Shown: positions 11,943 to 14,528 of the stretch, piece by piece
How the letters are laid out: each line of letters starts with the position of its first letter
How positions within the stretch are numbered: position 1 is the stretch's first letter
DNA from: Mycolicibacterium smegmatis
Lineage (GTDB): Bacteria > Actinomycetota > Actinomycetes > Mycobacteriales > Mycobacteriaceae
Direction: 5' to 3'
DNA length: 32,000 nt
Assembly (NCBI RefSeq): GCF_001457595.1
Contig: NZ_LN831039.1
Span: forward strand, 3,330,001 to 3,362,000
Translations under genes and position numbers: made by a program
Notes under the pieces: generated by a model
Database searches by the model: none
What the model was told of the DNA's origin: nothing
The model's input: the letters and a program-made list of their open reading frames with translations, nothing else

Positions 11943-11977
11943 GGTTGCGGCGTCCCCGGTGTGGAGACGCCGCAACC
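11943..11977. terminator. Strong GC hairpin (12-bp perfect stem GGTTGCGGCGTC/GACGCCGCAACC) between the convergent nadC and glycine-rich genes
   Basis: Read directly. It fills most of the 45-nt convergent spacer. There is no U-tract, so it would be the mycobacterial I-shaped terminator type if functional. Confidence 0.55.
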
Positions 11978-11984
11978 TCAGCGG

Positions 11985-13526
11985 CTACTCGCTGTCTTTG
12001 GAGTCCGAACCGGTGCCTGCAGCGCCGCCACCGCTCTTGGTGCCGCTGCTCTTGGTGCCGCCGGCCTTCGAGCTGGTCTTCGAGCTGGACTCCGAGCTGG
12101 ACTCCGAGTTGGACTCCGAGCTGGACGATGTGCGACTGCCGGCCTTGTCCGCGCTGCGTGTGGGCGTCGAACGGCCGGTGACACGGTTGCTCACGTTCTC
12201 GCGGGTGGCAGACCGGTCGGTCGCATTGCCGGGGTTGCCGGTCTTGCCGTCGCGGCCAAATCCGCCGCGGCCGGCCTGACCGCCTTGTCCGGGGCGGGCG
12301 CGGTTCGAAGAGCTCTGTGCATCGCCGCCGTCACCGCCATTGCCGCCGCCGGCAAGTCCGCTGCCGCCGTTGCCACCGTTTCCGCCGTACGCTGCGTTGG
12401 TTCCGGTTGCCTTCCCGCCGTTTCCACCGGCACCACCGGTTCCTATTCCGGTCGAGCCACCGTTTCCGCCGTTGCCGGCTGCTGCATTTCCGTTGCGGGT
12501 GCCGGCGGTTCCATTGTTGGCGTCACCGCCGTCGCCGCCGCGGCCGCCGTTTCCGAAAACCCCGCCGGCCCCGCCGTTGCCGCCGTCGGCGCCGTGGCTG
12601 CCCGCCGTTTCAGGACCTTCGCCGTCACCATCACCACCTCGGCCGCCGTCACCCCCCGACCCGACGAGCAGGCCCCCGTTGCCGCCGTTGCCGCCGCGGC
12701 CGGCGTTGGCGATGTGTGCGCCATTGGAGATGACGTTCGGACTTCCGTCGCCCCCTTTGCCGCCGTTGCCGATCAACCCGGCGTTACCTCCGTTTGCACC
12801 TTCCACACCGCCCACCGAGTTGCCGCCGTCACCGCCGTTACCGAGCAAGCCGGCGTTGCCGCCGTCGCCGGCCCGGCCACCGTTGACGCCTGCGAGCCCA
12901 TCTCCGCCCCTGCCGCCGTTGCCGAGCAGAAATCCACCATTGCCGCCCTTCTGACCGGGTCCGCCGTCGGCACCGTTGCCGATCAGCAGGCCGCCGTTCT
13001 GACCGGGCTCGATGCCATTCCCGATGAGCCAGCCACCCGGGCCGATCATCGGGCGGCCACTGGAATCCACGGCCACCGTCACCTTGGCGTCACCCACCAT
13101 GCCCACGGCGATTGGCGTGACGGTGAGCGCGGTGCCAGACGTCGAGGTCTTGGGTGCGAAGACCAGCCGTGCCGTGCTTGAACCGGGTCGGACGGCGCGT
13201 ACGGCGGTGAAGGCAGGAGAGCCGCTGACCCCCGGCTCCAGGTGACCGATGCCCGATCCGGTCGAGGTCACCGACCCGGGCGAGGTCGCGGGCAGGATCG
13301 CACCGTAGAGGGCGTTGGGGGTGGCAGGTGCGCCCTCCGGCGTCGATGTGACCGTCAGCCATCGCGGAGTCGAGGTCGAGGTCGGGGTTTGGTACGTGGT
13401 TGGCGTTCCGGTACTGGCGGGTGCCGGCGCCTGGGAGACAGCGACGCCTGCGGTGGCGACGATGCTCGCCGCGACGGCGGAAGTCAGGCGCTGATGCTTG
13501 GTCACGGCCGACCTATATCGGGGCAT
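11985..13526 (-). CDS. Secreted PGRS-type glycine-rich repeat protein without a PE domain; Ser-rich C-terminal tail
   Basis: 513 aa. The ATG is preceded by GAAGGA at good spacing. The N-terminus has a signal-like segment (LTSAVAASIVATAGVAVSQAPA). About 270 aa are GGxGG repeats with recurring (L/F)(L/I)GNGG motifs, as in PE_PGRS proteins. The tail is SSSSESNSESSSESSSKTSSK. Confidence 0.8.
   Translation of the reverse strand: MPRYRSAVTKHQRLTSAVAASIVATAGVAVSQAPAPASTGTPTTYQTPTSTSTPRWLTVTSTPEGAPATPNALYGAILPATSPGSVTSTGSGIGHLEPGVSGSPAFTAVRAVRPGSSTARLVFAPKTSTSGTALTVTPIAVGMVGDAKVTVAVDSSGRPMIGPGGWLIGNGIEPGQNGGLLIGNGADGGPGQKGGNGGFLLGNGGRGGDGLAGVNGGRAGDGGNAGLLGNGGDGGNSVGGVEGANGGNAGLIGNGGKGGDGSPNVISNGAHIANAGRGGNGGNGGLLVGSGGDGGRGGDGDGEGPETAGSHGADGGNGGAGGVFGNGGRGGDGGDANNGTAGTRNGNAAAGNGGNGGSTGIGTGGAGGNGGKATGTNAAYGGNGGNGGSGLAGGGNGGDGGDAQSSSNRARPGQGGQAGRGGFGRDGKTGNPGNATDRSATRENVSNRVTGRSTPTRSADKAGSRTSSSSESNSESSSESSSKTSSKAGGTKSSGTKSGGGAAGTGSDSKDSE
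12069..12128 (-). repeat. Five tandem 12-bp units (CGAGCTGGACTC-like) encoding the Ser/Glu-rich tail
   Basis: Read directly: units at 12069-12080, 12081-12092, 12093-12104, 12105-12116 and 12117-12128. Unit length is a multiple of 3, so the repeat is in frame. Confidence 0.9.
12237..13049 (-). repeat. PGRS-like GC-rich repetitive coding DNA (reiterated GGCAACGGCGG-type units on the coding strand)
   Basis: On the + strand this appears as reiterated CCGCCGTTGCC(G) and variants. It corresponds to approximately aa 160-430 of the glycine-rich protein. Confidence 0.8.
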
Positions 13527-13775
13527 GTGGATATTCCTTCATTCGGTTCGAAGAATGGCGAATCGAGCGACGTGAGCTGATTTCCGAAACGCAACTCAAC
13601 GGAAATCCCAATCTTTCTATCAGTTGCTGAGGAACTGTTCTAGCTGGTCGAAGCACATTGATGCGATTGCGTCTGAATAGACGCGCGAGTAAATTGGCGC
13701 GGGGATGCGGTGATCCGGATCGTAATTACTGCGCTGAGTGAACCAACATTCCGGGAAGTGGAAATCTGGCTACCG

Positions 13776-13803
13776 ATAAAAAGGTCGCCACGAATGGCGA
13801 TCC
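13776..13803 (-). terminator. Candidate intrinsic terminator downstream of the LysE-family gene
   Basis: On the minus strand it reads GGATCGCCA-TTCG-TGGCGACC followed by TTTTTAT, about 90 nt after the stop at 13893. The stem is 6-7 bp. Confidence 0.45.
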
Positions 13804-13892
13804 GCGGTTATTTCGGTTTCAAGTAGTCCCAGCAAATTCCATGGAAGCGGTCTCAATGTTGCTGGATACCCGGACTCGAAATAACGCGGGCG

Positions 13893-14528
13893 TCAAACAG
13901 TGGCCGCGCGGCGGACCAACGAAAGCACCACGGCGGCTGCCGCGAACAAACCGGAGAACACGCGGTTGAGAATCGTCTGCTGGCGGGGCGTGTGCAGCCA
14001 CGTCAGCAACCGGACCGCGAGGCCGGTGTAGAGCCCCATCACCACCAGGTCGACGGCGATCATCGTCGCGCCGATCGCCAGGTACTGCGGCAGCAGGGGC
14101 GCGGTGGGCACCACGAACTGTGGCAGCACGGCCAGGAAGAACACCAGGCCCTTGGGGTTGGTGGCATTCACCAGGAACCCGCGGACCACCAGGCCGGTAC
14201 GGCCGGCCTCGGTCGCCTTGCCGAGCTGCGCACGCAGGTCGATGGCGGCCGTGCGCCATTGGCGCACCGCCAGGTAGATCAGATAGGCGACGCCGATCCA
14301 CTTGATGATGTTGAACGCGACGATCGAACCGGCCACCGCGGCGCCCAGCCCGATCGCGACCAGGGCGAGCTGCAGCATGAGCCCGATCTCAAGGCCCAGG
14401 ATGCTCCAGTACCCACGGCGCACACCGTGGGTCAGACCGGTCGCCATGGACTGGATGGCACCGGCGCCGGGGGAGACGCTGATCGCGATCGCCGCGCCGA
14501 AGAACGCCAGCCAGACGTGCCATTCCAT
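13893..14528 (-). CDS. LysE/RhtB-family amino-acid exporter
   Basis: 211 aa with about six hydrophobic helices. The N-terminus MEWHVWLAFFGAAIAISVSPGAGAI and the motif NATNPKGLVFFLAVLPQF are typical of the LysE/RhtB family. Confidence 0.88.
   Translation of the reverse strand: MEWHVWLAFFGAAIAISVSPGAGAIQSMATGLTHGVRRGYWSILGLEIGLMLQLALVAIGLGAAVAGSIVAFNIIKWIGVAYLIYLAVRQWRTAAIDLRAQLGKATEAGRTGLVVRGFLVNATNPKGLVFFLAVLPQFVVPTAPLLPQYLAIGATMIAVDLVVMGLYTGLAVRLLTWLHTPRQQTILNRVFSGLFAAAAVVLSLVRRAATV

Follow-up and report, generated by a model that had tools for sequence, protein, structure and literature searches.

In the 32,000-nucleotide stretch of the Mycolicibacterium smegmatis genome analysed here (the window: contig NZ_LN831039.1, positions 3,330,001 to 3,362,000), a minus-strand gene between nadC and hisD encodes a protein of 513 amino acids (aa) with a long glycine-rich repeat region of the type known from the PE_PGRS proteins. 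The gene order is nrtR, nadABC, the PGRS gene, LysE, a gene for an F420H2-quinone-reductase-like protein and hisD. If the nrtR product is MSMEG_3198 and the restriction-modification pair is MSMEG_3213/3214, as we presume, counting along the gene order makes the PGRS gene probably MSMEG_3202. Martini et al. 2019 list MSMEG_3199-3200-3201 as a plus-strand three-gene operon. No second copy of the PGRS gene was found in the M. smegmatis genome, and it is single-copy there. A preliminary description of this DNA had read the open reading frame (ORF) as a PGRS-type protein with a Sec-like signal instead of a PE domain; the frame was confirmed at identical coordinates, is intact and has a good ribosome-binding site (Table 1).

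Because a genome of 70% GC opens several overlapping frames by chance, the coding frame was checked by codon-position GC composition in four sections, and the GC content of third positions (GC3) exceeded that of the other two positions in all four. An antisense frame at 11961..13181 is also open but by this measure is merely the mirror image of the PGRS frame. The region upstream of the gene presumably holds its promoter and 5' leader, and no sigma-70 consensus promoter was found in it; GC is 0.62 in 13001-14000 versus about 0.70 elsewhere in the window. The identical 513-aa product is encoded in the same synteny on contigs from at least 20 public samples, which are not independent since they probably represent mostly one laboratory strain. 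A second allele (L026, a Logan contig of sample ERR2303787; 99.3% identity over 3.35 kb) has a 1-nt deletion at codon 179 of the PGRS gene and another in hisD, beside clustered mismatches. Since hisD of the same contig is also frameshifted, the deletion in the PGRS gene is probably an assembly error, and pseudogenisation in that strain was set aside, a low-quality assembly being most likely.

Table 1. Features of the PGRS gene and of the two other PGRS-like loci of M. smegmatis. Positions are those of the window unless a contig is named.
Feature	Position	Strand	Basis or remark
PGRS gene	11985..13526	-	513 aa; ATG is the earliest start downstream of an in-frame stop
Shine-Dalgarno sequence GAAGGA	13540-13535	-	8 nt before the ATG of the PGRS gene
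Sec-type signal peptide (predicted), aa 1-37	13416..13526	-	composition, AlphaFold2 helix, family conservation
Thr/Ser/Pro-rich linker, predicted disordered, aa 38-157	13056..13415	-	pLDDT, composition
PGRS domain, aa 158-445, opening with GRPMIGPGGWLIGNGIEPGQNGGLLIGNGADGGPGQKGGNGGFLLGNGGRGGDG; GGX triplets, seven hydrophobic doublets	12192..13055	-	Pfam, hhalign, motif counts, AlphaFold2
Ser/Thr/Lys/Glu-rich disordered C-terminal tail, aa 446-513	11988..12191	-	pLDDT, composition
In-frame tandem repeat, 12 bp x 4.8 copies, the source of the reiterated SSE/SNSE of the tail	12069..12126	-	Tandem Repeats Finder
Stop codon of the PGRS gene	11985-11987	-	
Intergenic region upstream of the PGRS gene, 366 bp, AT-richer than the rest of the window	13527..13892	-	sequence read
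Terminator-like hairpin for the upstream LysE gene	13807-13785	-	within the intergenic region
RS04235 locus (L001), strong PGRS gene at 0.99 Mb	G000:C1:987094-990303	-	
Third PGRS-like locus	G000:C1:5466657-5467256	+	position fits RS25935

The repeat region is supported as genuinely of the PGRS type by several kinds of evidence. It consists of 42-44% Gly and 12% Asn. GGxGG occurs 19 times where 8.5 are expected from 2000 shuffles of aa 158-445, and a hydrophobic doublet followed by G(N/D/S)G occurs 7 times against 0.2 expected, which bears out the described pattern of GGxGG repeats punctuated by a hydrophobic doublet plus GNGG. The Gly autocorrelation at lags 3 and 6 is 0.38 and 0.20, compared to 0.36 and 0.23 in PecA of M. 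tuberculosis, and the doublet spacing widens along both proteins (14-19-27-24-36-36 versus 5-19-25-25-31-32 in PecA). At the DNA level, Tandem Repeats Finder returned the 9-bp units GCCGCCGTT and CCGTTGCCG on the plus strand of this region, each of them a cyclic permutation of TTGCCGCCG, which complements the classical PGRS core given in PMC1660551. The closest database relatives are Gly-rich proteins of Mycolicibacterium genomes and metagenomes, several of which NCBI names "PGRS repeat-containing protein". In an 11-row alignment of the PGRS protein with relatives (A1), Pfam PGRS matches 10 of the 11 members (best E 1.7e-10); NCBIfam and PHROGs gave no match.

A BLASTP comparison with PecA was uninformative, the Gly-rich alignment being erased by the composition adjustment, and was replaced by a profile-profile comparison. 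From the same hits, PGRS proteins that bear a PE domain, PecA/PE_PGRS35 of M. tuberculosis among them, were made into a second profile (A2), and hhalign of A1 against it gave a probability of 99.4%, an E of 2e-21 and 55% identity over 116 columns. The register sets LLIGNGADGGPGQKGGNGGFLLGNGG of the PGRS protein on (GR)PLIGDGANGGPGQNGGDGGLLYGNGG of PecA, which is the GRPLI entry, a conserved motif at the start of PGRS domains (PMC9436101). A GRPMIGPGG stands at aa 157-165, 20 residues before LLIGNGADGGPGQKGGNGGFLLGNGG, and is followed by LLIGNGADGG, which hhalign sets on GRPLIGDGANGG of PecA; the entry motif is a variant of GRPLI with M for L, and the entry is duplicated. This shared register, with the periodicity, the doublets and the 9-bp units, is not explained by composition alone. 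The PE domain (PF00934, about 90-110 aa), by contrast, gave no match at E up to 1 in the PGRS protein, nor in 11 + 9 family members, while the congener ORF L054, which served as positive control for the model, scored 119 bits; the expected absence of a PE domain was confirmed by this hidden Markov model search.

The predicted structure points the same way as the repeats. AlphaFold2 (AF2) gave a predicted local distance difference test score (pLDDT) of at least 90 for 180 residues, mostly 90-97 and essentially all in aa 160-445, a region where DSSP assigned almost no helix or strand; in a model, this combination is how stacked polyglycine-II (PGII) helices would look. With significance set at E <= 0.001, Foldseek found two significant matches in the PDB, both chains of 7JJV, the nine-helix polyproline-II antifreeze protein of a springtail (E 7e-6, probability 1.0). 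Next came the snow-flea antifreeze proteins 2PNE and 3BOG (the latter with a TM score of 0.68 on the target and a root-mean-square deviation of 2.6 A over 73 columns), and the other matches were beta-helix noise at E >0.7. Searching PDB sequences with the family profile found nothing. The predicted fold agrees with the PGII-sandwich "sail", an antiparallel polyglycine-II stack, that has been proposed for PGRS domains together with peripheral docking of PE_PGRS proteins on the mycomembrane by a hydrophobic edge (PMC9436101). An origin from phage tail adhesins was rejected, as Foldseek against viral models gave no significant match.

The N-terminus has the layout of a Sec-type signal peptide, as had been claimed from the letters alone. 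The n-region (aa 1-13, MPRYRSAVTKHQR) has a net charge of +4, the h-region (aa 14-30, LTSAVAASIVATAGVAV) is uncharged and hydrophobic over 17 residues, and the c-region (aa 31-37, SQAPAPA) contains AxA-type sites. Candidate cleavage sites, read by eye and not by a predictor, are APA|ST at 37/38 (A35-P-A37|S) and AVS|QA at 31/32 (A29-V-S31|Q). A Pro at +1 blocks signal peptidase I, and cleavage would fall after Ala37 or Ser31 because Pro behind the other AxA sites would prevent it. The protein has no Cys and therefore no lipobox, and no twin-arginine motif was found in its N-terminus. AF2 models aa 11-26 as one helix, the only long helix of the protein.

This layout is not peculiar to the M. 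smegmatis gene. Among the PGRS ORFs extracted from 29 fetched loci of the genus, 27 of 29 have a basic stretch and then a segment of 15-20 residues rich in A/V/L/G ahead of the PGRS domain, as do all 11 rows of A1, and textbook cleavage sites (AFA|Q, ASA|D, AAA|D) occur in many of the genus ORFs. Of the remaining two, L045 runs off its locus and L054 is a true PE_PGRS gene. That a signal-like feature is preserved across otherwise unalignable, fast-diverging N-termini speaks most strongly for a correct start codon and a functional segment, and it argues against the scenario in which the true start lies elsewhere.

Behind the signal, the region described as Thr/Ser/Pro-rich is indeed so, with 33% S+T and 11% P over aa 38-157, and pLDDT is below 50 over aa 23-153. 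It is a candidate region for O-mannosylation. The islands TPNALYGA and VFAPKT are the sole stretches of the linker shared with the family in A1. The proposed non-repetitive N-terminal domain of about 100 aa was not supported as a folded unit, as pLDDT is below 50 throughout. The N-terminal 170 aa had no homolog in a word-index search and only chance-level matches in 24 congeners, and an exhaustive phmmer search of 1.84 billion cluster representatives returned only a 96%-identical allele; since these 170 aa are without homologs beyond this one allele, there is no conserved folded N-terminal domain. The Ser/Lys-rich C-terminal tail, on the other hand, was as described. It contains about 45% S+T with Lys, Arg and Glu, has a net charge of about +4 and stays below a pLDDT of 50 for aa 450-513. 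Its tandem repeat (period 12, 91% matches, score 95 in Tandem Repeats Finder) lies in frame, and S/T/D/K-rich tails resembling this one occur in the family members P0011 and P0004.

The architecture is widespread in the genus when its phylogenetic distribution is examined. The A1 profile matches 90 of the 151 sampled Mycolicibacterium species at E <= 1e-5 and 67 of the 111 high-quality genomes, counts that include any PGRS-like protein and not the signal type alone. Several distinct loci per genome are frequent (6 in G024, 6 in G066 and 8 in G047), and at least 15 species have matches over nearly the whole architecture. Outside the genus, the profile matched in 2 of the 33 other genera searched within the family and in none of the 183 searched genomes from 18 other families of the order. 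Of the 29 columns that are invariant in A1, 28 fall in the PGRS region, where a near-invariant entry block, PGxNGGxLIGNGAxGGPGQxGGxGGLLxGNGGxGGDG, stands out; the islands have the family form TPNxLYAA and FAPxT. The M. smegmatis protein carries all family features in A1, that is, the basic n-region, the 15-20-aa hydrophobic segment, the S/T/P/A region, the islands and the entry block, and by these features it is one member of a widespread Mycolicibacterium family and not a one-off. In several relatives from metagenomes and genomes (P0007, P0008, P0016 and P0005), the repeat region turns midway into Ala/Pro/Val/Arg-rich sequence that looks like PGRS DNA read out of frame, either through assembly frameshifts in GC-rich repeats or through real decay.

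The control ORF L054 (L054:1483-3423, plus strand, on G138:C1 of a congener) begins with MSFLITTPEVVATAATDLSSIGSAIGAAN and matches Pfam PE at 119 bits (E 1e-34) and then PGRS at 36 bits. It is a genuine PE_PGRS gene in a fast-grower genus, which contradicts the common view that Mycolicibacterium has no such genes.

The slot between nadC and hisD is as variable as the preliminary description supposed. In nine congeners (L017-L025), this interval holds between 20 bp and 3.2 kb of unrelated cargo, and none of the nine has a homolog of the PGRS gene there. Three species carry a TetR regulator with a Zn-dependent alcohol-dehydrogenase-like gene, two carry small unrelated exported proteins of 148-194 aa, and some intervals are empty. 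The interval is a hotspot of gene turnover, and the PGRS gene is species-specific in it. LysE is present in some congeners only; it stands in swapped order with the F420H2-quinone-reductase-like gene in G011 (L023), and in G002 (L024) the order is as in G011 but LysE is a 53-aa fragment.

Our preferred reading, to which we assign a probability of roughly 0.65, is a PE-less PGRS protein that leaves the cytoplasm by the general Sec pathway and not by a type VII (ESX-5) system. Several observations weigh against it. The Pfam PGRS match of the protein itself (PF21526, aa 182-237) reaches only 22 bits (E 2e-4) where the gathering score is 27, and a Gly-rich composition inflates profile scores. The AF2 run used the 11-row alignment only. 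Pro directly follows two of the AxA-like sites (e.g., SQA|P), so that the cleavage position is uncertain and an uncleaved anchor possible. GC3 of the gene is 0.77 compared to about 0.90 in nadC, hisD and LysE. The 178 N-terminal codons differ from the second allele at 6 nonsynonymous sites and 1 synonymous site, which is weak evidence, from a contig with signs of assembly error, that may be compatible with weak constraint. Lastly, MSMEG_3202 is not mentioned in the main text of the literature searched.

The main rival, which we regard as rather improbable, is that the N-terminal segment is an uncleaved signal-anchor, giving a type II plasma-membrane protein whose PGRS domain would stand in the periplasm or cell wall on its disordered stalk and not be released to the mycomembrane or the medium. 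The single helix at aa 11-26 would suit an anchor, and the hydrophobic segments of some family members are longer and more hydrophobic, but the h-region here has only 17 residues, is rich in Ser/Thr/Gly and has a mean Kyte-Doolittle value of about 2.0, which is short for a stable transmembrane helix. The block that Pro at +1 imposes on signal peptidase I at the two AxA-like sites is likewise countered by the usable APA|S site at 37/38 and by the AFA|Q and ASA|D sites of many relatives. The long stalk of about 120 disordered, S/T/P-rich residues, as tethered proteins that span the wall typically have, also speaks for the anchor.

Less likely still is a silent or decaying passenger, brought into a hypervariable slot by horizontal transfer and unexpressed or functionless in M. 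smegmatis. Its presence at this slot only in M. smegmatis, with other cargo or nothing in the nine congeners, the excess of nonsynonymous differences and the silence of the literature would fit this, and the low GC3 and the AT-richer 366-bp island upstream do suggest horizontal acquisition; the island may also be a target of a nucleoid protein of the Lsr2 type. Yet a repeat-rich frame of 1.5 kb is still open behind a good Shine-Dalgarno sequence and ATG, the whole architecture with motif islands and entry block agrees with that of a family retained across many species, the frameshift of the second allele is probably the assembly error discussed above, and the other two M. smegmatis PGRS genes are reported to be expressed (PMC11939664).

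We give almost no credence to an RTX-like beta-roll that binds Ca2+, or to a collagen-like triple helix, in place of PGRS/PGII in the Gly-rich region: Ca2+ binding by PGRS domains has been proposed (PMC8430768) and GGxGxD is enriched (8 versus 1.1 expected in 2000 shuffles), but this enrichment is a by-product of the GGxGG(D) pattern, the RTX nonapeptide GGxGx(D/N)xUx with its hydrophobic position is not significantly enriched (2 versus 0.4 expected, reached in 132 of 2000 shuffles), neither HemolysinCabind (PF00353) nor Collagen gives a Pfam match at E up to 1, the triplets are GGX (about 43% Gly), with two Gly each, and not G-X-Y, and the almost strandless AF2 model is no beta-roll and has PGII bundles as its only significant matches. 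Ca-binding-style turns of the RTX type, as had been described, were thus not supported.

Two further PGRS-like loci exist in M. smegmatis, at 0.99 Mb (Pfam PGRS 53.8 bits) and 5.47 Mb, the gene studied here lying at 3.34 Mb. A 2025 review describes two M. smegmatis proteins with a PGRS fold, RS04235 and RS25935, reports them as expressed (unpublished RNA-seq), calls their N-terminal annotation questionable and does not mention our gene (PMC11939664), and the sequences in its Table S1 differ from the protein studied here. The RS04235 frame stays open for about 190 codons ahead of the annotated Met (MHERLRERAG...), and this extension contains HRAARARGERSLSRP-IASAGLASVAFAGAGVMLLLG, a basic stretch together with IASAGLASVAFAGAGVMLLLG. 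The gene therefore probably starts further upstream than annotated, and RS04235 may begin with a signal or anchor too. The matched stretch at 5.47 Mb contains one in-frame TGA, and the gene may be split, frameshifted or mis-assembled. RS04235 and RS25935 share with the studied protein the genome, the predicted sail-like PGRS fold and the lack of a demonstrated PE domain, but they are separate genes and their N-terminal regions differ.

The literature mostly holds that fast growers, among them M. smegmatis, are without PGRS (PMC1660551, PMC12209268, PMC10216338). PGRS has been stated to occur "only in pathogenic strains" (PMC10216338), no pe_pgrs genes were counted in Mycolicibacterium (PMC12209268), and M. 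smegmatis retains only the pe/ppe pairs linked to ESX-1 and ESX-3 (PMC12209268, PMC1660551). PGRS-fold proteins of M. smegmatis and Mycolicibacterium have a single earlier report (PMC11939664), and some relatives already bear the PGRS name at NCBI. Against the prevailing view, the third M. smegmatis gene, the Sec-type leader as the typical N-terminus and the breadth and copy number of the family appear to be new in the literature searched. ESX-5 is reported to be exclusive to slow growers (PMC12209268), and therefore a PGRS protein in M. smegmatis would need an ESX-5-independent route.

MspA, a mycomembrane protein of M. smegmatis made with a cleavable Sec signal peptide, shows that Sec can lead to the mycomembrane in this organism. 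The genome encodes four Msp porin paralogs with 91-99% identity to M. smegmatis MspA. For the PGRS protein, expression, signal cleavage, glycosylation, localisation and physiological role are inferred. Under Sec export, aa 1-37 would target the unfolded chain to SecYEG/SecA1 and signal peptidase I would cut, most likely after Ala37 or Ser31. The linker would remain a disordered stalk and a likely substrate of Sec-coupled O-mannosylation, aa 158-445 would fold beyond the cytoplasm into a flat polyglycine-II "sail", and the protein would attach peripherally to the mycomembrane or cell wall through the seven hydrophobic doublets on one edge, with the Ser/Lys-rich tail staying flexible. The route would be akin to that of the MspA porin and not to that of the PE_PGRS proteins, and in this soil saprophyte the protein would probably act at the surface or on the properties of the envelope.

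In pathogenic mycobacteria, much of the coding capacity goes into PGRS domains, which are hard to study because of their dependence on the PE domain and ESX-5. We know of no agreed function for them and of no experimentally solved structure. A third M. smegmatis gene, a typical Sec-type leader and a widespread family would together uncouple the PGRS fold from type VII secretion and provide a tractable, harmless host in which to study export, localisation, glycosylation, Ca2+ binding and structure. The family also bears on the beginnings of the PE_PGRS expansion. It is tempting, if doubtful, to see the Sec-signal PGRS proteins of environmental fast growers as the ancestral form, from which the PE_PGRS proteins of pathogens would have arisen when a PE/ESX module replaced the Sec signal. 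The occurrence of the family in 90 of 151 Mycolicibacterium species, in several as multiple copies, bears on this, and both solutions coexist in the genus, one congener having a true PE_PGRS. Were this ancestry true, M. smegmatis would be a safe, ESX-5-free model for PGRS "sails" in the mycobacterial envelope.

Among the closest known systems are the Mycolicibacterium relatives, annotated as "PGRS repeat-containing" or hypothetical proteins, of which those of M. frederiksbergense (P0008), M. austroafricanum (P0016) and M. lacusdiani (P0011) have the same full architecture, with a signal-like N-terminus, a variable A/T/S/P region with islands, the PGRS entry and often an S/T-rich tail. Overall identity to the M. 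smegmatis protein is only 32-46%, and its N-terminal 170 aa are undetectable by HMMER in any other species. The PE_PGRS proteins of slow-growing mycobacteria (e.g., PecA/PE_PGRS35 and PE_PGRS33 of M. tuberculosis) have a homologous PGRS domain with an in-register entry, GRP(L/M)IG ... LIGNGAxGGPGQxGGxGGLLxGNGG, and share the GGX periodicity, the widening doublet spacing, the 9-bp DNA core and the predicted PGII "sail". The M. smegmatis protein differs from them in having no PE domain, hence no YxxxD/E-type ESX signal and no PE-linker helix, and has in their place a predicted Sec-type signal and a 120-aa disordered S/T/P stalk. It is also Asn-rich (12%) with a Ser/Lys tail where PE_PGRS proteins are Ala/Leu-rich, and its host, unlike theirs, is reported to be without ESX-5 (PMC12209268). 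The MspA porin is an analogy for export only, being a beta-barrel octamer unrelated to the PGRS protein in fold and function. The springtail and snow-flea antifreeze proteins (7JJV, 2PNE, 3BOG) are, like the PGRS model, antiparallel polyproline/polyglycine-II bundles of Gly-rich triplets, but they are eukaryotic, ice-binding and only 81-126 aa long, and the 22-38% identity in the aligned stretches is what a shared Gly-rich composition predicts. Going by the model, their likeness to the PGRS protein would be one of fold type only, with no further relationship detected.

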